A stretch of DNA of 64,000 bases from Pseudomonadota bacterium (GCA_010031735.1 RGZB01000002.1:2580-66579); one strand, 5' to 3'; counted from the first letter of the stretch, positions 2,651 to 52,401 are shown. The notes: a model not told the origin generated them from the letters alone. Translations and numbers: made by a program.

Positions 2651-3775
2651 TTAGAAGTTGAGTTGGGTACCAACGAGCACCGCGGTGCCCGTGTTGTCTA
2701 CCGTCGTACCAGCAGCGTCAGCGTCGAAGAAGTTAGCTTCTACGTACGGAACGAGGCCCGGAGCGAGTTGGTAGTCTGCACCGACGGACACGAGGTCCAG
2801 ATCGTTGTCAGAGCGTTCGCTGTTCAGGTAGGTTACGCTCACGCCGAACGGACCGGTTTCATAAGTCGCGCCGAGGGTGAAGTAATCTTGATCGTTGTTG
2901 CCAGTCGCAGCCGTCGGCAGCGTGCTGTCATCCCAATCGCCATAAGAACCAGCGATGCTGAAACCTTGGTAAGAAACCACTGCACCAACTTGGAATGCAG
3001 AGAGGTCTTCCGTACCAGCAATTTCAGAAGAACCGAATTCGCCCGTTGCAGATGCTTGGATACCGACTTGGTCGAATTGACCACGGTAGTTAGCACCAAC
3101 GGAGAATACGTTCTCTTGGTCGCCGTTCAGGTCACCGGTGTGAGACAGGTACGTACCAGCGTCACCAGAATCCGGAGTGAAGCTTACGCCCACTTGGAAG
3201 CCAGAGAAGCGCGGAGAGTAGTACGTGATTTTGTTCGCATCTTCGGTCGTGCCACGGTTAGCATCGAGCGGCAGATCCGGACGGGTGATGAACGTTGCAG
3301 AAGCTGCAGACGGGTTCGTTTGACCCGGGAGAGTCACGAAACGGTACCAGTCGCCATCAATGCCACCGGTCGCGCGAGCGATCGTAGCAGCATCAACTTT
3401 CATGTTGTTAGCAGCAGAGAGGTTAGAACCTGCTTCTACGCGGCCAGCATTGCTTTCCACGAAGAGGTAGGTACGCTCAGCATTGAGACCGTTGTTGTCA
3501 GCAGACGCATTGAGGTCAGCTTGCAGACGGATCACAGAGCCGTAACGCAGACCGTTGTCAGAAGTACCTTCAACGTTTACGTCAACTTTGGTGTCGTTTG
3601 CAAATTTCGCGTCGCGGCTAGATGCGCCGGTAGCGTCGAATGGAGAGTCTTGATCTGCAAAGCCGGCTTGGAAGTCAAAATAACCACCGAGCGATACAGT
3701 CGGCTCAGCATGTGCGCCAGCTGCAAATGCAGCAACGCCTACGAGAGCGGTCGTGCCAAGTAAAAACTTTTTCAT
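2651..3775 (-). CDS. Outer-membrane porin (Gram-negative beta-barrel porin family)
   Basis: 374-aa ORF with signal peptide MKKFLLGTTALVGVAAFAAGAHA|EP. Composition is G/S/T/N/D/Y/F-rich and alternating. The C-terminus ...LVGTQLNF ends in Phe, as in OM beta-barrels. Confidence 0.8.
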   Translation of the reverse strand: MKKFLLGTTALVGVAAFAAGAHAEPTVSLGGYFDFQAGFADQDSPFDATGASSRDAKFANDTKVDVNVEGTSDNGLRYGSVIRLQADLNASADNNGLNAERTYLFVESNAGRVEAGSNLSAANNMKVDAATIARATGGIDGDWYRFVTLPGQTNPSAASATFITRPDLPLDANRGTTEDANKITYYSPRFSGFQVGVSFTPDSGDAGTYLSHTGDLNGDQENVFSVGANYRGQFDQVGIQASATGEFGSSEIAGTEDLSAFQVGAVVSYQGFSIAGSYGDWDDSTLPTAATGNNDQDYFTLGATYETGPFGVSVTYLNSERSDNDLDLVSVGADYQLAPGLVPYVEANFFDADAAGTTVDNTGTAVLVGTQLNF

Positions 3776-4066
3776 ATGTATATCCTGTTAGTTGATCCTA
3801 GTTGTTAAAACCCACACACGATTACCTACAATATTCGCGTAGGTCGCCATGTGTTCGCATAACGCAAGGGCATTGAAACCAAATTTCAGCTCGCCGCGCA
3901 AGCGTGACCCAGTGTTTATTTAGGGGTCGGGGGCATTTTAGACCTCACTGTTGCAAAGAAGGCACAGTTTGTTGCCCCCCTGCATCACCCAGTCGTTAAT
4001 TTTTGGCGGTTTTTCGGGCTCTTATTCCATCTGGTATTCCACCCGTACCCACGCTATAAATGCCAC

Positions 4067-38076: not shown

Positions 38077-39048
<972 letters not shown>

Positions 39049-41138: not shown

Positions 41139-42305
41139 ATGGATATCCAACAGCTTTTATGGAACGAAGAATATGGCTGGCGGCCCGTGGAAGCGGGCGA
41201 ACCGGTCGACTTCGTCGAAAAGCCGATCGATGCGCAGCTGGTGCTCTATTTCGGTGCGGCGAGCGTCTTCGAAAAAGTCCCGGTCTATGAGGAATTGAAA
41301 CGCCGCTACCCCTATGCCCACATCGTGGGGGCATCGAGTGCGCTACAGGTCTCTGGCCATTATCCGCTGACAGGCGCTATCACGGCGACGGCTATCCGCT
41401 TCCGCGATGCGGAAGTGCGTGTGGCATCGACGGAGCTGAAGCGCCCTGAACAATCCTATGGTGCCGGTGTGCAGATCGGTGAATCGCTGATATCGCCGGA
41501 CTTAAAAGCCGTGCTGCTCCTGTGCGACGGAACGGTGGCGGATGCGGGTGTGATCATTTCCGCGATGGTGGGCAAGATCGGCAAGAAGATCCCGATTTCG
41601 GGGATGGTCTCCTCGACGGGGCTCGGTGCGGTGCATACCTTTACCGGTGCCGATAGTGTGCCGGAACCCGGCAAGATCGCTGCGATCGGGTTCTATGGTA
41701 AGCACGTCGAACTCAATACCGCAGGTTTCCATAGCTGTGTACCCATGGGTGCACCGCACAAGATCACCCGTGCGAAAGGCCACATCGTCTATGAGATGGA
41801 CGGTGTCGATGCGCTCAGCGTTTATCGCAAATACGTGAAAGAGGATACGGCGGAAGGCGACCGCATGCGCCTCTTGTTCCCCTTCATGATGTCGCGCGAA
41901 GATATGCCCGCGCACGGTGTGCTCCGTTCCGTCGTGATGGTGGATGAAGGGGCGAAGGCCCTGGTGCTCGGCGGGAACGCACCGGAAGGCCGTATCCTGC
42001 AGATGATGATGTCGCGCCCCGAACATATCGTGATAGACGGCGAAGCGGCGGCGCTTGCCAAGGCGCGCTTGATCAAAAGTACTGCAAAAGGCGATGTGCT
42101 GGCGCTGCTTGCGGGCGATGTCTCGCGTGCCGCCGCGATGGACCGTAATATCTATCAGGAGACCGGCTATGTTGCGGAACTGCTGGGCTCAAAACCCTCG
42201 CTCATCGGCGGCTATGGGAACGGCATGTTCATGCCGGTGATGCCCGGTGAGGAAAGCAAGTTGCACAACTACACGACCGCGATCGCGGTGCTGCAGGAAG
42301 TCTAA
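41139..42305 (+). CDS. FIST-domain (FIST_N/FIST_C) signal-transduction protein, putative
   Basis: 388-aa ORF. The length, the early AQLVLYFGA motif (compare the 'pdlvllFas' pattern), ...VLLLCDG... and the two-lobed glycine-rich layout resemble FIST proteins. Assignment is from memory only. Confidence 0.5.
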   Translation: MDIQQLLWNEEYGWRPVEAGEPVDFVEKPIDAQLVLYFGAASVFEKVPVYEELKRRYPYAHIVGASSALQVSGHYPLTGAITATAIRFRDAEVRVASTELKRPEQSYGAGVQIGESLISPDLKAVLLLCDGTVADAGVIISAMVGKIGKKIPISGMVSSTGLGAVHTFTGADSVPEPGKIAAIGFYGKHVELNTAGFHSCVPMGAPHKITRAKGHIVYEMDGVDALSVYRKYVKEDTAEGDRMRLLFPFMMSREDMPAHGVLRSVVMVDEGAKALVLGGNAPEGRILQMMMSRPEHIVIDGEAAALAKARLIKSTAKGDVLALLAGDVSRAAAMDRNIYQETGYVAELLGSKPSLIGGYGNGMFMPVMPGEESKLHNYTTAIAVLQEV

Positions 42306-43262: not shown

Positions 43263-43302
43263 AAAGTCCTCCTTGTCACACCTTTAAAATAGCCTAAAAT
43301 CC

Positions 43303-43317: not shown

Positions 43318-43542
43318 AGCAGCGCAGGCAAAGACGCGAAACACATGGGTTTCTTATAAAACACCAAATTGGTGTATTGACAAATATTCTAGGATTTCTG
43401 CGGTTCCCTGGCATTCATATACAGGAATAAACGGTAAAATTGCCGAAAAAGCACAGGCTTTTCGCGCCGTTTTTATTGCTGCCCCTGTAGAACGGGTCTA
43501 TAAGCAGCCAAGATTTCACCACCAACGACAGAAGGTGTTCCC

Positions 43543-44715
43543 ATGAACATACATGAATATCAAGCAAAGCAAGTACTCGCGAAATACAAAGTCCCGACCC
43601 CAAAGGGCTTCCCCGCATTCACGGTCGAAGAAGCCGAAAAAGCGGCAAAGGACCTCGGCGGCTCCGTCTGGGTGGTGAAGGCGCAAATCCATGCGGGCGG
43701 TCGCGGTAAAGCGGGCGGCGTGAAAGTCGTGAAATCCTTGGACGATGTGAAAAAAGAAGCAAAACGCCTGCTCGGCTCGACGCTCGTGACGCACCAGACC
43801 GGCCCGGAAGGTAAAGTGGTGAACCGCCTCTATATCGAAGAAGCATCCAACATCGCGAAAGAATATTATCTCGGTGCCCTCGTGGACCGTGCGAACTCGC
43901 GCGTGACGTTCATGGCGTCTTCCGAAGGGGGTGTGGAAATCGAAGAGGTGGCACACAAACATCCGGAAAAAATCATCACGGTGTCGGTCGATCCGGCAAC
44001 GGGTATCCAGGGCTGCCACGCACGCAAACTGGCGTATGGCATCGGTCTGTCCGGCGATAAAGTGAAAGAATTCTCGAAATTCGTGTTTGCACTCTACAAT
44101 GCATTCGTTGGTACGGATTCCTCGATGTTCGAGATCAACCCGCTTGTTGAGACCAAAGAAGGCAATTTCATCGCCCTCGATGCGAAGATCAATTTCGACG
44201 ACAACGCACTCTTCCGCCATCCCGACCTGGAAGCACTGCGCGATGAGTCGGAAGAAGAGCCGCTCGAAGCACGTGCAGGCAAATCCGGCCTGTCCTACGT
44301 GAAGATGGACGGCACCATCGGCTGTATGGTGAATGGTGCGGGTCTTGCCATGGCAACCATGGACATCATCAAACTGTATGGCGCTGAACCGGCGAACTTC
44401 TTGGATGTCGGCGGTGGTGCGACGAAAGAGAAAGTCACCGAAGCGTTCAAGATCATCCTGTCCGATAAAAACGTGAAGGGCATCCTGGTCAACATCTTCG
44501 GCGGCATCATGCGCTGCGACATCATCGCAGAAGGTATCATCGCTGCGGCAAAAGAAGTCTCCATCAAAGTGCCGCTCGTGGTGCGCCTGGAGGGTACGAA
44601 CGTGGAGAAGGGTAAAGAAATTCTCGCGAAATCCGGCCTTGCGATCACGTCTGCTGACAATCTTGCAGATGCTGCGGACAAAGCAGTGAAGGCGATCAAG
44701 AAAAAGGCGGCGTAA
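43543..44715 (+). CDS. sucC: Succinyl-CoA synthetase beta subunit
   Basis: 390-aa [20 protein letters not shown]...[18 protein letters not shown]... and [15 protein letters not shown] are SucC signatures. Confidence 0.96.
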
Positions 44716-44717
44716 GG

Positions 44718-45011
44718 ATGCGTTTTTGCGGCTTTTTCCTGTTGGCGGCTTTGCTGGTAGTGGGCGCGAGCCCGGTGCTGGCAGAAGGATGCACACCGCT
44801 TGCAGAAAGAATCGCAAGAACATCGATGCTCCAAGCAACGTCGGATGTGGACGAGGCGACGGGCAGGCGGGTGCAGCGTGATTTGGACATGAGCTACAGC
44901 CAATATTACGCGCAAAACTGTGAATACGGCGTACTGGAGAAAGCGTTCGAGGGTATAAAGGATAGGGCACCCCTCCGCGCGCTTACGAAGGCGGAAGTAC
45001 AAAAGAAATAA
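44718..45011 (+). CDS. Small secreted hypothetical protein (97 aa), paralogue of the next ORF
   Basis: The ATG lies 2 nt after the sucC stop. It has signal peptide [22 protein letters not shown]|EG and two Cys 43 residues apart. The ...[10 protein letters not shown]...TKAEVQKK pattern is shared with 45035-45436. Confidence 0.55.
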
Positions 45012-45034
45012 CGTGAAGTAAACAGGAGAGTGGT

Positions 45035-45436
45035 ATGAAAAAGATTCTGATTTCCCTGATCGCGGTGACGGCGCTTGCTTCGGCTGCGCCTGTCGAAGCA
45101 GCAACCGCCAGCAAGAAAGCGGCGGCAAAACCCGCCGCGAGACAAGCGTCCGCCGTGTGTGAGGCGCTCGGGAAAAATATCGCGTATATGTCGAAAGAGC
45201 TCACCAATAAAAAAGCGGGCTACGATAAGGCGACCGTCACCAACCTGAAGCAGACGCTCGATACCGCCTATGTCTCCTATTATAAGAACGACTGCAAGGA
45301 AGAGCTGCTCACCAAGCAGCTGAAAGGCACGACGATCAAGCCGCGCAGCAAGGCCGAGGTATTCAAGAAGGTGTCAGAAGAAAACCAGGCGTTTATCAAG
45401 AAACAAGCGCAACATAAGAAATCGAATAAAAACTAA
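45035..45436 (+). CDS. Small secreted hypothetical protein (133 aa), paralogue of the previous ORF
   Basis: AGGAG lies 7 nt upstream of the ATG. It has signal peptide [22 protein letters not shown]|AT and two Cys 45 residues apart, with ...[10 protein letters not shown]...SKAEVFKK. Confidence 0.6.
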
Positions 45437-45482
45437 TCAACCCTACTAACGACTGATACATAATCAAAAAGGAATCGCTATC

Positions 45483-46358
45483 ATGGCTGTACTCGTCAAC
45501 AAAAACACCAAAGTGATCTGTCAGGGCTTCACCGGCTCTCAAGGCACGTTCCACTCCGAACAGGCCGTGGCTTACGGCACGAAAATGGTGGGTGGTGTAA
45601 CCCCAGGTAAGGGCGGCACGAAACATCTGAACCTGCCGGTATTCGACACCGTAGACGAAGCAGTGAAGAAAACGCAGGCCGATGCGAGCGTGATCTACGT
45701 TCCGCCGCCGTTCGCTGCCGACGCGATCATCGAAGCGATCGATGCGAAGGTGCCGCTCATCGTGTGCATCACCGAAGGTATCCCGGTGCTTGACATGGTG
45801 AAAGTGAAGAAAGCGCTTTCCGGCTCTAAAAGCCGCCTGATCGGGCCGAACTGCCCGGGCATCATCACACCGGGCGAATGCAAAATCGGCATCATGCCGG
45901 GCCATATCCACAAACGTGGCAACGTCGGCATCGTCTCGCGCTCTGGTACGCTGACGTATGAAGCGGTGAAACAAACGGCGGATGCGGGCCTTGGTCAATC
46001 CACCTGCATCGGTATCGGTGGCGATCCGGTGAACGGCACCAACTTCATCGACTGCCTCGACCTTTTCTTGAACGATCCGGAAACCCACTCGATCATCATG
46101 ATCGGGGAGATCGGTGGTTCGGCGGAAGAAGAAGCGGCGGAGTTCCTCAAAAAATCGAAGATCAAAAAACCGACGGTGGGCTTCATCGCGGGCCGTACGG
46201 CCCCGCCGGGACGCCGCATGGGTCACGCCGGTGCGATCGTCGCCGGTGGCAAAGGTGGCGCAGAAGACAAAATCGAAGCGATGAAATCCGCGGGTATCCG
46301 CGTATCGGATTCGCCGTCTGCGCTCGGTACCACGCTTAAAGAATTACTGGCCGCTTAA
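45483..46358 (+). CDS. sucD: Succinyl-CoA synthetase alpha subunit
   Basis: 291-aa [35 protein letters not shown] and SRSGTLTYE, plus the phosphohistidine loop MGHAGAI. Confidence 0.96.
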
Positions 46359-46394: not shown

Positions 46395-49256
46395 ATGTCA
46401 GCATCGAACCTGAAGCAAACGACCTACGCCGCCTCCGGCAATAGCGTGTATATCGCGGAGCTGTATGAGCAATACCTGACCAATCCTGCGTCTGTCGATG
46501 CAAGCTGGCAGGAATTCTTCGGTGGTCTCGGTGATAATGCCGCGAACATCTCCAAAGATTTCATCGGGGCGGGCCGTCAGATCGTCGGCTACCGCGAAGA
46601 GATCGTCGAGAAGCGCCGCATCAAGGGTGGCCGACGTAAAGGTGACCAGCAGGCCGCAAAACAAGGTGAGGATGCAAGCTCGGCCTCGATCCGTGCGCAC
46701 ATGCTAATCCGTGCATTCCGCGTGCGTGGACACTTGCTTGCGAAACTCGATCCGCTAGGCCTGGAAGTGCGCGAGACACATCTCGAGCTCGATCCGAAGC
46801 ATTATGGTTTCAGCGATGCGGATTGGGATAAGCCGATCTATATCGGGGGCTGGCTCGGCATGGAGAATGCAACCCTCCGCCAAATCGTGGATGCGCTGAA
46901 GGCTACCTACTGCGGCAACATCGGTGCGGAATTCATCCATGTGGTACCGCTCGAGCAAAAAGAATGGCTCGAGAACCAGATGGAATCGACCTTCGGTAAG
47001 CCGGTGCTTTCCAAGGACGATAAAAAGAAAATCTTGGACCAGATCGTGAAGGTCGAAGGCTTCGAGCAATTCTTGCATGTGAAATTTCCGGGCACAAAAC
47101 GGTTCTCGATCGAAGGCGCGGAATCGCTGATCCCGGCGCTCGAGACGATGGTGGAAGTATCCGCTCGTCTCGGTGTGCAGGATGTGGTGGTCGGCATGCC
47201 GCACCGCGGCCGCCTGAACGTGCTCACCGCCTTCATGGGTAAACCGTACTACGCGATGCTCTCTGAATTCCAGGGTAACAAAGCGACCCCGGACGATATC
47301 GAATCCTCGGGCGACGTGAAATACCATCTGGGTACGTCTTCCGACCGCAATGTGAACGGCAAGGTCGTGCATATGTCGCTTACCGCGAACCCGTCGCACT
47401 TAGAGGCGGTGAACCCGGTCGTGATGGGTAAGGTGCGTGCGAAACAAGACCAGCTTGGCGATACCAACCGCGATAAAGTGATGGCCGTACTCCTGCACGG
47501 CGATGCGGCATTCGCAGGCCAGGGTGTGGTAGCGGAATCGCTCTCGCTCTCCGACCTTACGGCGTATGCAGTGGGCGGCGTGTTCCACATCATCGTGAAC
47601 AACCAGATCGGCTTCACGACGAGCCCTAAAAACGCACGTCTTTCCCCGTATCCGAGCGATGTCGCGAAAACAGTGCAGGCGCCGATCTTCCACGTCAACG
47701 GTGACGATCCGGAAGCGGTGATCCATGCGACCCGTATCATTTCGGAATACCGTCATAAATTCAAAAAAGACGTGGTACTCGACATCTTCTGTTACCGCCG
47801 CCATGGCCATAACGAAGGCGACGAACCGATGTTCACGCAGCCGGTGATGTATAACACGATCGGCGAACACATGACGCCGCGCGATGTGTACGCGAAGAAG
47901 CTGATGGATGAAGGTACCCTCTCGATGGAAGAATTCGAGAAGATGAAACGCAGCTGGCACGATTTCCTGGAGAAGGAATACGATGCGGCGAAGAAATACA
48001 AGCCGAACAAAGCCGACTGGCTCGAGGGCAAATGGAAAGGCTTCGAGAAACCGAAGAATTCCGGCCGTACGAACGTCGACACGGGCGTTGATATCAAAAC
48101 GCTCAAAAAACTTGGCAAGCATCTCTCCGCGAAACCGGAGGGCGTGGTGCTCAACAAAAAGATCGAACGCCTGCTCGAAGCAAAAGCGAAGATGTTCGAG
48201 ACCGGTGAAGGTTTTGACTGGGCAACCGGGGAGGCACTTGCGTTCGGTTCGCTGCTGCTCGAAGGTACCTCTGTGCGCCTAACGGGTCAAGACGTGGTGC
48301 GCGGCACGTTCTCGCATCGCCATTCGGGCTTGGTCGATCAGACCAACGACAACCGTTATTTCCCGCTCAAGAACCTTGATCCGAAACAGGCGCGCTTCGA
48401 AGTCTATGACTCGAATCTCTCCGAATTCGCGGTGCTTGGTTTCGAATACGGCTACTCGCTCGCGGAGCCGAACAGCCTGACGCTGTGGGAAGCACAGTTC
48501 GGCGATTTCGTGAACGGTGCGCAGGTCATCATCGACCAGTTCATTTCTTCAGGGGAATCGAAATGGCTGCGGATGAGCGGTCTTTGCATGCTGCTGCCGC
48601 ACGGTTATGAAGGCCAGGGCCCTGAGCACAGCTCGGCGCGCCTCGAGCGCTTCCTGCAATCGTGTGCAGAAGACAACATGCAAGTGGTGAATATCACCAC
48701 GCCGGCGAACTACTTCCATGCACTTCGCCGCCAGATCGTGCGGAAGTTCCGTAAACCGATGATCGTGATGAGTCCCAAATCGCTGCTGCGCCACAAGCTC
48801 GCGCAATCGACGCTCTCCGAGTTCGAAAAAGGCAACAGCTTCAAACGCATCATCGGTGAGACGCAGAAACTGGTCGCGGGTGATAAGGTGCGCAAAGTGA
48901 TCTACTGCTCCGGTAAGGTCTACTATGACCTATTCGAAGAACGTGAGAAGCGCGGCATCAACGATATCGCGATCGTGCGTATCGAGCAGCTCTACCCGTT
49001 CTCTGACGCCGAAGTGGCAGAAGAGGCGAAGAAATACAAGAACGCCGAAGTGATCTGGTGCCAGGAAGAGCCGAAGAATATGGGCGCCTGGACCTTCATC
49101 AACCCGCTCATCGAAGAAGCGCTTATCGAAGCGAAGCATAAGAATGCGCGTCCGCGCTATGTCGGTCGCCCAGCGGCGGCTTCACCGGCGGTGGGTTATA
49201 TGAAAATGCATACCGAACAACTCAATGCCTTCTTAAACGATGCACTCGGAAAGTAA
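46395..49256 (+). CDS. sucA: 2-oxoglutarate dehydrogenase E1 component
   Basis: 953-aa ORF. IRAHMLIRAFRVRGHLLAKLDPL, GMPHRGRLNVL, LHGDAAFAGQGVV and LPHGYEGQGPEHSSARLERFLQ are SucA signatures. Confidence 0.96.
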   Translation: MSASNLKQTTYAASGNSVYIAELYEQYLTNPASVDASWQEFFGGLGDNAANISKDFIGAGRQIVGYREEIVEKRRIKGGRRKGDQQAAKQGEDASSASIRAHMLIRAFRVRGHLLAKLDPLGLEVRETHLELDPKHYGFSDADWDKPIYIGGWLGMENATLRQIVDALKATYCGNIGAEFIHVVPLEQKEWLENQMESTFGKPVLSKDDKKKILDQIVKVEGFEQFLHVKFPGTKRFSIEGAESLIPALETMVEVSARLGVQDVVVGMPHRGRLNVLTAFMGKPYYAMLSEFQGNKATPDDIESSGDVKYHLGTSSDRNVNGKVVHMSLTANPSHLEAVNPVVMGKVRAKQDQLGDTNRDKVMAVLLHGDAAFAGQGVVAESLSLSDLTAYAVGGVFHIIVNNQIGFTTSPKNARLSPYPSDVAKTVQAPIFHVNGDDPEAVIHATRIISEYRHKFKKDVVLDIFCYRRHGHNEGDEPMFTQPVMYNTIGEHMTPRDVYAKKLMDEGTLSMEEFEKMKRSWHDFLEKEYDAAKKYKPNKADWLEGKWKGFEKPKNSGRTNVDTGVDIKTLKKLGKHLSAKPEGVVLNKKIERLLEAKAKMFETGEGFDWATGEALAFGSLLLEGTSVRLTGQDVVRGTFSHRHSGLVDQTNDNRYFPLKNLDPKQARFEVYDSNLSEFAVLGFEYGYSLAEPNSLTLWEAQFGDFVNGAQVIIDQFISSGESKWLRMSGLCMLLPHGYEGQGPEHSSARLERFLQSCAEDNMQVVNITTPANYFHALRRQIVRKFRKPMIVMSPKSLLRHKLAQSTLSEFEKGNSFKRIIGETQKLVAGDKVRKVIYCSGKVYYDLFEEREKRGINDIAIVRIEQLYPFSDAEVAEEAKKYKNAEVIWCQEEPKNMGAWTFINPLIEEALIEAKHKNARPRYVGRPAAASPAVGYMKMHTEQLNAFLNDALGK

Positions 49257-49257
49257 C

Positions 49258-49722
49258 ATGGACGAGAAGCAGCGCAAGAAAGTCGAACTGGATGACGCGC
49301 TCCTGCCGCTTACGCAGGCGCTGTTTGATGGGCCGGTAGTCACGCTTGCTGAGCGTGCGGGGCATCATGAGTTCCGCACCAGTGTGGGGTCGGAGGAATT
49401 TGCCGAAGGGCTTCAAGCGCTTCGGGCGGACTTAGGCAAGCTCGTGCCGCTCGAAGGCATCGACTTGCTGCCGATCCCTGGGTTCGCCGTGGCGCCACAA
49501 GTGCATGCACAGGTGGCAAAATTGGTAGTGATCCTTTCCGGCGATGCGGCGCTTGCGGAAGCAAAGGATCTGCCCTTGCTGCCGGATGATATGAAGACCG
49601 ACGCCATCACCAAAGGTGCGGTGCATGAAGTAAAACGACTGACCGGTGAGATCGCCAAGCTCCTGAAAGGTGCTGGCAGGAACGCCGACGAATTAGAACC
49701 CTCACGATTCATTAATTTATAA
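49258..49722 (+). CDS. Hypothetical protein (ORFan, 154 aa) between sucA and sucB
   Basis: The ATG at 49258 lies 1 nt after the sucA TAA. The ORF-track start at 49240 overlaps sucA. No recognisable family. Confidence 0.5.
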   Translation: MDEKQRKKVELDDALLPLTQALFDGPVVTLAERAGHHEFRTSVGSEEFAEGLQALRADLGKLVPLEGIDLLPIPGFAVAPQVHAQVAKLVVILSGDAALAEAKDLPLLPDDMKTDAITKGAVHEVKRLTGEIAKLLKGAGRNADELEPSRFINL

Positions 49723-49756: not shown

Positions 49757-50956
49757 ATGGCAGCAGAAATCATCACCCCCCAACTCGGCGAATCCGTATC
49801 GGAAGCAACCGTGGCGAAATGGTTCAAGAAACAAGGCGAGTTCGTGAACAAAGACGACCTCCTCGTGGAACTTGAGACCGATAAAGTGACGCTCGAAGTG
49901 AACGCGATTTCCGCCGGCGTCTTAAAAGAAATCAAAGTGAAAGAAGGCGATACCGTATCGGTTGGCGCACTCCTTGGCATCATCGATGAATCCGCCAAAG
50001 GCGCCGCGCCGGCGAATGCAAATGCACCGAAACCGGCGGCGGCACCCGCTCCGGCTCCTGCTGCTGCAAAACCGGCGGCCTCCGCCCCGGCAGCGACCAC
50101 GCTCGGCGAAATCGCGCGTAGCGGTCCTGCGGCACGCAAACTCGCGGAAGAAACCGGTGTCAGCACCTCTGGTATCGCGGGTTCAGGTAAAGACGGCCGC
50201 ATCACCAAAGGCGATATCATCAATGCACAGAGTGGTGGTTCTGAAGTCGCTTCCGGCCCACGCGAAGAACGCGTGAAGATGACGAAACTGCGCCAGGTGA
50301 TCGCACGCCGTCTCAAAGAATCGCAAAACACGGCCGCGATCCTGACCACATTCAACGAAGTCGATATGACGAACGTGTTCGCGCTGCGTAACGAATACAA
50401 AGATGCCTTCGAGAAGAAGCATGGCACGAAACTCGGTTTCATGTCCTTCTTCGTGAAAGCGGCGGTGAATGCGCTCAAAGAGATCCCGGCGGTGAATGCG
50501 GAAATCGATGGCGATGAGATCGTGTATAAACACTTCTACGATATCGGTGTGGCTGTCGGTACGCCGCAAGGCCTCGTGGTACCGGTGGTGCGCGATGCGG
50601 ACCGTAAATCCTACGCGGAGATCGAGAAAGACATCGCGAACTACGGTAAAAAAGCCCGCGATGGCAAACTCACCATGCAAGAACTGACCGGCGGTACCTT
50701 CACCGTATCGAACGGGGGTGTCTACGGCTCGCTGATGTCGACCCCGATCGTGAACCCGCCGCAATCGGCGATCCTCGGTATGCATAAGACGCAGGAGCGC
50801 CCGATGGTGGTGAACGGCAAGATCGAGATCCGTCCGATGATGTATCTGGCGCTCTCTTACGATCATCGCATCATCGATGGCAAAGAGGCCGTAACCTTCC
50901 TGGTCCGCATCAAAGATGCGATCGAAGATCCACGCCGCCTGCTGCTGGATATGTAA
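49757..50956 (+). CDS. sucB: Dihydrolipoyllysine-residue succinyltransferase (E2 of 2-oxoglutarate dehydrogenase)
   Basis: 399-aa ORF. It has a lipoyl domain ([12 protein letters not shown]), an Ala/Pro linker, an E3-binding domain, and a catalytic C-terminus [15 protein letters not shown]. Confidence 0.96.
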
Positions 50957-50988: not shown

Positions 50989-52401
50989 ATGGCTGAGCAA
51001 TTTGATGTAGTGGTAATCGGTGGTGGTCCGGGTGGGTATGTCGCAGCCATTCGTGCGGCACAACTAGGTCTTAAAACCGCGTGCGTAGAAAAACGCGGTG
51101 CACTGGGCGGCACGTGCCTGAACGTCGGTTGCATCCCGTCGAAAGCGCTGCTGCACTCTTCCGAAATCTACGAAGAAGTGAAAGAGCATGGCAAAGCGCA
51201 CGGTATCACCGCGACGGGTCTGAAGGTCGACGTGAAAACCATGCTGTCGCATAAAAACGACGTGGTGAAGAACTTGACCCAAGGTATCGAAGGCCTGTTC
51301 AAGAAGAACAAGGTGACCTACTACAAAGGCCACGGCATCATCCTCGGTAAAGGCGAAGTCGCCGTGAAACCGGTGGATGGCAAAGGTACGCCGGAATCGA
51401 TCAAAACCAAGAACGTGATCATCGCGACGGGTTCGGATGTGGTACATCTGCCGAACGTGCCGATCGATGAAAAGCGCATCGTCTCTTCCACCGGCGCGCT
51501 CGACCTTCCGGAAGTGCCGAAAAGCATGATCGTGATCGGTGCGGGGGTGATTGGCCTCGAGATGGGTTCCGTATGGCGTCGCTTGGGTGCGGAAGTGACC
51601 GTGGTCGAATTCATGGACCACATCACGCCAGGGCAGGATATGGAAGTCTCCCGCCAGTTCCAGAAGATCCTCGAGAAGCAAGGCATGAAATTCAAGTTAG
51701 CTACCAAAGTCACGGGCGCGAAATCGGATGGCAAATCCGTGACGCTCACGGCCGAGCCGAAAGACGGTGGTAAGGCAGAGACCCTGAAAGCCGATGTGGT
51801 GTTGGTGGCGATCGGTCGCAAGCCCTATACGGATAACTTAGGCCTCAAAGAGGCCGGTGTCGCGGTGGATGAACGCGGGCGCATCCAGGTGGACGCACAC
51901 TTCGAGACCAACGTGAAGGGCATCTACGCGATCGGCGACGTGATCCCGGGTCCGATGCTGGCGCATAAAGCGGAAGAAGACGGCGTTGCGTGTGCCGAGA
52001 TCATCGCGGGCCAGAAAGGCCACGTGAACTACAATCTCGTGCCGGGCGTGATCTATACCAATCCGGAAGTGGCGGCGATCGGCAAGACCGAAGAGGCGCT
52101 GAAGAAAGAAGGCCGTGCGTACAACGTCGGCAAATTTCCGTTCCTGGCGAACTCGCGCGCACGTGCGACGGGCAAGACCGATGGCTTCGTGAAGATCCTG
52201 GCCGATCAGAAAACGGATGAAGTGCTCGGCGTGCATATCATCGGTGCGCAAGCCGGCACGATCATCGCGGAAGTAGCGGTGGCGATGGAATTCAAAGCAA
52301 GTGCGGAAGATATCGCACGCACCTGCCATTCGCACCCAGACTTAAACGAGGCGGTGAAAGAAGCCGCGCTCGCCGTCGCGAAACGTCCGATCCATATCTA
52401 G
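50989..52401 (+). CDS. lpdA: Dihydrolipoyl dehydrogenase (E3)
   Basis: 470-aa [24 protein letters not shown], redox-active [13 protein letters not shown], and C-terminal HSHPDLNEA. Confidence 0.96.

Follow-up and report, generated by a model that had tools for sequence, protein, structure and literature searches.

Why should two genes for small, apparently exported proteins be located between sucC and sucD, which encode the two subunits of a cytoplasmic enzyme? In the window (the whole stretch of DNA analysed here, 64 kb in length), the genes for the beta and alpha subunits of succinyl-CoA synthetase are separated by two ORFs of 97 and 133 aa on the same strand. An earlier note on this DNA had reported this arrangement, and both the ORF listing and the sequence bear it out. 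The features of the locus are as follows.

38101-39048: mdh (Pfam scan)
41139-42305, + strand: FIST-domain gene (Pfam scan)
43273-43300, + strand: sigma-70-like promoter match TTGTCA-16-TAAAAT, candidate operon promoter (consensus match only)
43543-44715, + strand: sucC, succinyl-CoA synthetase beta subunit (ORF listing; 56-83% identity to the sucC of relatives)
44718-45011, + strand: ORF1 (97 aa, NDF11391.1), orthologue of the single-copy member in relatives
44718-44783, + strand: predicted Sec-type signal peptide of ORF1, 22 aa (heuristic; predicted cut before EGC)
44784-45008, + strand: predicted mature domain of ORF1, 75 aa (AlphaFold2 model)
45024-45028, + strand: Shine-Dalgarno AGGAG, 6 nt 5' of the ORF2 ATG (read from the sequence)
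45035-45436, + strand: ORF2 (133 aa, NDF11392.1), divergent tandem paralogue, seen only in the window's lineage
45035-45100, + strand: predicted Sec-type signal peptide of ORF2, 22 aa (heuristic; predicted cut before ATAS)
45467-45473, + strand: Shine-Dalgarno-like AAAGGAA, 9 nt 5' of the sucD ATG (read from the sequence)
45483-46358, + strand: sucD, succinyl-CoA synthetase alpha subunit (76-88% identity to sucD in 80 genome loci)
46395-49256, + strand: sucA (ORF listing)
49757-50956: sucB (Pfam scan)
50989-52401: lpd (Pfam scan)

The spacers measure 2 nt from sucC to ORF1 (the stop of the former, the 2-nt gap and the start of the latter read TAAGGATG), 23 nt from ORF1 to ORF2 and 46 nt from ORF2 to sucD. 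The sucD of the window is 89% identical to that of loci L083, L086 and L087, and Pfam ATP-grasp_2 and Ligase_CoA were matched on the sucC orthologue. Two independent metagenome assemblies (L001 and L002) contain an identical (100%) sucC-ORF1-ORF2 junction, which rules out an assembly artefact. Two antisense ORFs, at 43516-44970 (- strand, 484 aa) and 44295-45128 (- strand, 277 aa), were judged to be shadows of sucC and ORF1, and an Rfam scan of the window found only two tRNAs, both away from the locus.

Three further observations concern the surroundings of the junction. The L001 contig (1013 nt, from another sample) is 100% identical to the window over nt 1-980, and its last 33 nt (981-1013), which correspond to the leader and the low-complexity start of ORF2, do not align; strain variation or an artefact at the contig end could account for this stretch. 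Between mdh and sucC, a gene for a FIST domain (a putative sensory domain) is found in the window (41139-42305, + strand), in L083 (1598-2761) and in L086 (157-1320), and it has apparently been added to the usual mdh-sucCDAB order in this clade only. Downstream, an ORF of 160 aa (49240-49722, + strand) fills the 500-bp gap between the end of sucA at 49256 and the start of sucB at 49757, a gap that is only 33 nt in L083 and L086. This ORF lacks a signal peptide and matches nothing in Pfam or PHROG, and its exact sequence is absent from the protein collection; the operon may have received another insertion here, or the region may be non-coding spacer.

A small family of resident genes

The earlier note had proposed that the two ORFs are paralogous, and the pairwise alignment is indeed significant: BLASTP gives E=4e-8 with 31% identity over 75 aa, and a Smith-Waterman alignment of the mature parts scores 83, against 25.5 +/- 4.4 in 2000 shuffles (z=13), none of which reaches 83. 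The shared motifs described in that note are present, but the motif at the first cysteine had been mis-spaced, and reads C-x2-L-[AG]-x2-I-A, not C-x3-L/G-x3-IA. The residues between the two cysteines number 42 in ORF1 and 44 in ORF2. We defined a family, here called X, by a leader, a cysteine, about 42 residues, a second cysteine, the motif Y-x2-YY-x2/3-C and a position directly after sucC; both ORFs in the window show this combination.

When ORF1 and ORF2 were searched singly, with a word index, against 5.8 billion protein clusters, the only matches were the ORFs themselves (NDF11391.1 and NDF11392.1, each named 'hypothetical protein'). A two-domain profile, searched with no word index against 1.84 billion representatives, gave five matches including three new ones, P0003-P0005 (89-102 aa), and a five-member profile searched against the 5.8 billion clusters gave six matches, adding P0006. 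The exhaustive search (1.84 billion) used the two-sequence profile only, and further members may exist beyond these six clusters. In JGI metagenome contigs, scans with each of two family alignments gave at least 600 matches by chance, with no member confirmed among the matches listed, and a scan of viral contigs returned no relative of X.

On all contigs that encode X, the gene lies directly after sucC and before sucD, in the order sucC-X-sucD or sucC-X-other ORFs-sucD. A scan of 185,579 species genomes with sucD led independently to P0004, between sucC and sucD in L003, the closest GTDB relative, which is labelled 'uncultured Rickettsiales' and whose sucD is 88% identical to that of the window. 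The hosts of X are a few related uncultured alphaproteobacteria that belong to one clade. In all six members, the leader, the two cysteines, I32, D45, T48, L56, Y60, Y63-Y64, L73, K91 and E93 (ORF1 numbering) are conserved.

Are these ORFs genuine genes, or chance open frames in an enlarged intergenic spacer? In L083 and L086, which carry the closest orthologue pair, the Nei-Gojobori estimates for X are dN 0.075 and dS 0.435 (omega 0.17), with a dS of 0.41 for the flanking sucC and 0.34 for sucD, and the off-frames of the same X DNA give dN/dS values of about 0.9 and about 2.3. In this pair X has about 14 times the dN of sucC and sucD, and the identity of X falls to 31-45% among lineages whose sucC proteins share 72-83%. 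Chance frames would suit the lack of any family annotation, with 'hypothetical protein' as the sole database name, and the codon adaptation of ORF1, which at 0.44 is below the 0.7 of the TCA genes. They are effectively refuted, however, by the significant paralogue, by orthologues in at least four other lineages, by purifying selection specific to the X reading frame, by the confident structure prediction described below and by the presence of ribosome-binding sites and of a GC1>GC2<GC3 pattern as in the neighbours. The earlier note would have been refuted had the ORFs not been conserved in any relative; these orthologues and their omega of 0.17 show conservation. A mobile-element or recent-transfer origin was also considered and rejected: no flanking repeats were found around ORF1 and ORF2, and their GC content, including GC3, and codon use are like those of neighbouring genes. 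X is a genuine resident protein-coding family under purifying selection.

Which of the two copies is ancestral?

We noted that ORF1 resembles the single-copy members more closely than ORF2 does, with similarity scores of 94-129 against 64-81 for ORF2, and that ORF1 scores highest against P0003, P0004 and P0006. The sequence DVDExTG is kept in ORF1 and replaced by GYDKATV in ORF2. The mature form of ORF1 is near-neutral, like the other members (-7 to +1), whereas that of ORF2 has a charge of +13.9 and a pI of 9.85. The nearest relatives, L083, L086 and L087 (sucC 83% and sucD 89% identical), have one X copy each. Judged by these comparisons, ORF1 is the orthologue of the clade-wide single-copy gene, and the insertion is not private to the window's genome. 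In the simplest history, ORF2 would be a tandem duplicate that arose in the window's lineage and then diverged asymmetrically; with sequences this short, an older duplication followed by later losses is also conceivable. After the duplication, ORF2 would have lost DVDExTG and gained Lys-rich tails and a net charge of +14. This charge and these tails suggest a new, probably anionic, partner, such as a membrane or lipopolysaccharide surface.

A short repeat was also observed at the two ends of the insert. The 15-nt sequence ATCAAGAAAAAGGCG, located just before the final two codons and stop of sucC (window 44695-44709) and encoding I-K-K-K-A, has a 13/15 match at 45395-45409, in the Lys-rich C-terminal tail of ORF2 just 5' of sucD. 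One other 13/15 match exists in the whole window, against 0.12 expected from shuffles. The repeat may be left over from the ancestral junction between sucC and sucD, or it may be due to a bias in lysine codons.

Predicted export and fold

Sec-type leaders had been proposed for both ORFs, and they hold up in a heuristic test of the N-termini based on n-region charge, a 10-residue Kyte-Doolittle core and small residues at -3/-1. All six N-termini contain one or two K/R and no D/E, and their cores have Kyte-Doolittle values of 2.5-3.3 over 10 residues (2.7-3.3 in ORF1 and ORF2). The candidate cleavage sites over the six members, with the cut marked by a slash, are VLA/E and VEA/A (the candidates in ORF1 and ORF2), ALA/N, AYA/N, ACA/N and LAN-type sites. 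In the family alignment, AxA followed by N or E and then by Cys is conserved; the first cysteine lies 3-5 residues past the AxA site, and 20 residues past it in ORF2. No lipobox (L-[AS]-[GA]-C) is present in any member, and no twin-arginine motif is present in the n-regions. By this heuristic, the leaders of X fit export by Sec and cleavage by signal peptidase I.

The AlphaFold2 model of mature ORF1, built with the six-sequence alignment, has four helices (residues 3-19, 24-43, 48-56 and 69-74 in mature numbering) with a pLDDT of 89.1 and a pTM of 0.79. In this model, helix 2 has DVDExTG as its loop and N-cap and the Y-x2-YY cluster at its end. That placement, together with a glycine misplaced for an EF-hand loop, led us to reject the idea that DVDExTG is an EF-hand or HAD motif. 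Cys3 opens helix 1 and Cys46 comes after helix 2, so that the antiparallel hairpin brings the two cysteines to the same open end, in a geometry compatible with a disulfide. The helix topology and the invariance of the two cysteines thus point to a probable Cys3-Cys46 disulfide. In the model of ORF2 the helices come in the same order; its N-terminal tail is disordered and rich in Ala and Lys, and its C-terminal helix is longer.

Does this fold belong to a known family? Pfam-A, NCBIfam, PHROGs and PADLOC gave no match above threshold, and no PHROG was common to more than one member. In Foldseek searches, in which E<=0.001 or a TM clearly above 0.5 across the whole domain was taken to mark fold membership, the ORF1 model stayed short of that mark in the PDB, where the best match was to Sgt2-N (E 0.53, TM about 0.5) and Tai4 ranked 50th (E=6.5), and in BFVD (best E 0.8). 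A profile of family X searched against PDB sequences gave nothing below E=0.17, and no Spackle or immunity protein at E<=10. Among the candidates rejected, T4 Spackle (PF25676) matched ORF2 at 10.6 bits (E=0.92, against a gathering threshold of 27 bits) and gave no match to ORF1; PepSY_2 (PF13670) matched ORF1 at 12.3 bits (E=0.17, against 24.3 bits) over residues 7-40, which are mostly leader; and the matches to PBP_dimer, SlpA and PetJ were weak. A literature search found no description of a gene between sucC and sucD. We conclude that X is a new, narrowly distributed family of small, apparently exported, helical proteins, rather than the demonstration of a new mechanism.

Probable coupling of X to sucC and sucD

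How is X tied to the genes on either side? In L083, L086, L088 and L003, the sequence TAATG is common to the sucC stop and the X start. At its other end, X overlaps sucD by 17 nt (L083 and L086) or by ATGA (L088), and the sucD ribosome-binding site (AAAGAGGAG or AAGGAA) is located inside the last X codons, K-E-E or K-K-E, in relatives. In alphaproteobacteria without X (L004-L081, ~3980-4003), sucC typically has GTGAAGGAGGCNGCG and then TAATG at its 3' end (V-K-E-A-A-stop); the last sucC codons therefore form the sucD ribosome-binding site, with the stop and the start overlapping. Because the 3' end of X carries the sucD ribosome-binding site, X occupies the place where sucD usually starts and rebuilds the coupling signal. 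The C-terminal K-[AE]-E coincides with this ribosome-binding site, so that its conservation may act partly at the RNA level. In the window the coupling is less tight: ORF2 and sucD each have a spacer and a ribosome-binding site of their own.

The promoter match at 43273-43300 is the only one on the + strand 5' of sucC, and the number of such matches is not above that in shuffled sequence. From sucC to sucD, no terminator-like or promoter-like sites were found on the + strand. Considering this, the tight spacers and the overlap of X with the sucC stop and the sucD start in relatives, it is a well-supported reading of the sequence that ORF1 and ORF2 are transcribed together with sucC and sucD.

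The sucC-sucD junction as a site for cargo

Is an insertion at this position peculiar to X? The earlier note had stated that sucC and sucD are almost always adjacent. We sampled 79 loci with both genes, nearly all of them alphaproteobacterial. The statement is true in general, with a spacing of -13 to +71 nt in 65 of the 79, but it is broken by inserts in the other 14, where the spacing is 344-2539 bp. Besides L003, the cargo loci are L009, L010, L022, L053, L054, L059, L061, L062, L063, L067, L069, L070 and L076, and nine of these 13 are from Rhodobacteraceae. All cargo is on the same strand and, except in L003, it is unrelated to X (BLAST, jackhmmer). It comprises sulfotransferases (L061 3295-3978, L076 3277-3990), methyltransferases (L070 1877-2695 and 3272-3940), a cupin (L069 3614-3991) and orphan proteins, about nine of which have signal-peptide-like or lipoprotein-like (lipobox) N-termini. 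Two cargo families recur in Rhodobacteraceae, one made up of L070a, L062a and L054 and the other of L059a and L070c. The sucC-sucD junction is a recurrent home for cargo in Alphaproteobacteria.

In L003, the X orthologue (2625-2918) is followed on the same strand by ORFs at 3024-3563 (179 aa) and 3567-3935 (122 aa), and then by sucD. These two ORFs have no signal peptide and no Pfam or PHROG family. Their presence after X indicates that the junction kept taking cargo with X already in place.

The cargo family of L070 (1461-1883), L062 (2343-2813) and L054 (3348-3926) deserves particular attention, in that it shares with X the junction, the strand, a signal-peptide-like N-terminus and two cysteines, with a Cys spacing of 42 residues and a central TG. 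In contrast to X, its proteins have double the length, with a second half that looks rich in strands. An hhalign comparison with X from the first to the second cysteine gave a weak match (P=0.019, probability 2.4%), with a score of 15.1 against 9.0 +/- 1.7 in a column-shuffle null (maximum 14.3; 0 of 300 reach it). No link between the two families was found by jackhmmer. The resemblance does not suffice to establish homology; a distant common origin and coincidence would both account for it.

What might X do?

We propose, with somewhat better than even confidence, that X is a non-enzymatic protein of the periplasm or envelope that uses its operon position as an expression site, not as a physical link to the enzyme. 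On this proposal, X would be carried on the sucC-sucD mRNA, and its translation would be coupled to that of sucC by termination and re-initiation at TAATG (TAAGGATG in the window). In the single-copy relatives with sucD directly 3', X would in turn hand ribosomes on to sucD, because its last codons hold the ribosome-binding site and start codon of sucD. The protein would be exported by Sec and cut by signal peptidase I after AxA, and a Cys3-Cys46 disulfide formed in the periplasm would staple its open end. It would most likely act by binding an envelope partner. Because X is too small and too poor in residues of catalytic type to be an enzyme, a binding role is the one that we infer; it is the default suggested by size, and the neighbouring genes point to no partner. 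The place in the operon would give X strong, constitutive, TCA-linked expression. Since unrelated cargo, including cytoplasmic enzymes, is found at the same junction, and since the neighbourhood (mdh, the FIST gene, sucCDAB and lpd) contains no transporter, sensor or respiratory gene, the position is best read as an expression site.

That the exact position is kept while X drifts could, however, equally mean a functional tie to the operon. X would then be a periplasmic partner tracking succinyl-CoA synthetase or TCA flux, for example in C4-dicarboxylate sensing or uptake, in respiratory-chain assembly, or in haem or cytochrome maturation via succinyl-CoA (the alphaproteobacterial ALA synthase route). 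The position is strict in all six members despite fast sequence change, the start/stop overlaps with both subunit genes are tight, and the invariant Cys pair and the Tyr cluster look like parts of a specific binding surface. We nevertheless consider such a tie unlikely, in that X and succinyl-CoA synthetase would be in different compartments, none of the linked genes just named is a transporter, sensor or respiratory gene, and X matches no known binding-protein family. Moreover, because unrelated enzymes and orphans occupy the same junction in other lineages, position alone implies no function. We give only a slight chance to a broader version, in which the junction is a selected site for exported proteins, and X and the two-Cys proteins of Rhodobacteraceae are remote relatives or analogues that matter to the operon. 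If this were true, the product in the periplasm might signal, or help to sustain, TCA or respiratory activity, or else export of the middle cistron during its translation might anchor the sucCDAB mRNA, and with it nascent succinyl-CoA synthetase, at the inner membrane beside succinate dehydrogenase.

Two other explanations place the benefit elsewhere. X might be a protective inhibitor or immunity-type periplasmic protein that has borrowed a housekeeping operon for constant expression, and its target would be a peptidoglycan hydrolase, a secreted effector or a phage lysozyme. In its small size, export, helical build, disulfide, rapid evolution and divergent tandem duplication, X would have the profile usual for immunity proteins, and the very weak matches of ORF2 to T4 Spackle (Pfam) and of the ORF1 model to Tai4 (Foldseek) point in the same direction. 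These matches are far below significance, however, and the X profile retrieves neither protein from the PDB at E<=10; the members have no PADLOC or PHROG family in common, no effector or secretion-system gene is adjacent, and the stable clade-wide position is unlike the variable islands in which immunity genes are usually found. We therefore regard this explanation as decidedly improbable. Alternatively, the act of translation might be what counts, X being a bridge that carries ribosomes over from sucC to sucD and determines the SucC:SucD ratio, with its product secondary. The TAATG overlap with sucC, the sucD ribosome-binding site and start inside the X 3' end (L083, L086 and L088), which copy the ancestral sucC-sucD junction, and the purine-rich, ribosome-binding-site-like codons of the conserved C-terminal K-[AE]-E would all be expected of such a bridge. 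Yet the omega of 0.17, the invariant Cys and Tyr residues and the conserved leader and fold show selection on the protein, and two further ORFs lie between X and sucD in L003. In the window, ORF2 and sucD have their own ribosome-binding sites, with spacers of 23 and 46 nt, so that a strict relay has not been kept. We regard such a bridge as very improbable.

Implications and comparison with known systems

The arrangement is real, conserved and odd, and its most likely reading is an ordinary one. X adds a new, very small protein family with a confident helical fold that lacks a match, and the threading of an apparently exported protein, via start/stop overlap, between the subunit genes of a core cytoplasmic enzyme is an unusual arrangement that has been kept clade-wide. 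The finding that sucC-sucD adjacency is broken by varied same-strand cargo in about one-sixth of the sampled loci, nearly all alphaproteobacterial, should be useful for operon-based annotation and for understanding how new genes gain expression. If the position of X were functional, and not merely convenient, central carbon metabolism would be linked to the cell envelope in an undescribed way.

With which known systems can X be compared? T4 Spackle, Tai4 and the Spy/CpxP-type chaperones have no sequence or fold relationship to X, and we know of none that is encoded inside sucCD. They are nevertheless like X in having about 70-110 aa in the mature form, a cleavable leader, an all-helical structure and a Cys pair, as well as in their lack of enzymatic motifs and their rapid divergence. 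The cargo genes of other Alphaproteobacteria, mainly Rhodobacteraceae, resemble X in junction and strand, and often in having two cysteines behind a signal-peptide-like N-terminus, but their sequences have no significant relationship to X, and some of this cargo is enzymatic (sulfotransferase, methyltransferase and cupin). The closest counterpart to the arrangement itself is the ordinary coupled sucC-sucD junction, in which the 3' end of sucC, with its TAATG and ribosome-binding site, does what X does in the relatives of the window's genome; what distinguishes the X-bearing operons is that a third, apparently exported, protein is threaded between the two subunits of a cytoplasmic enzyme.
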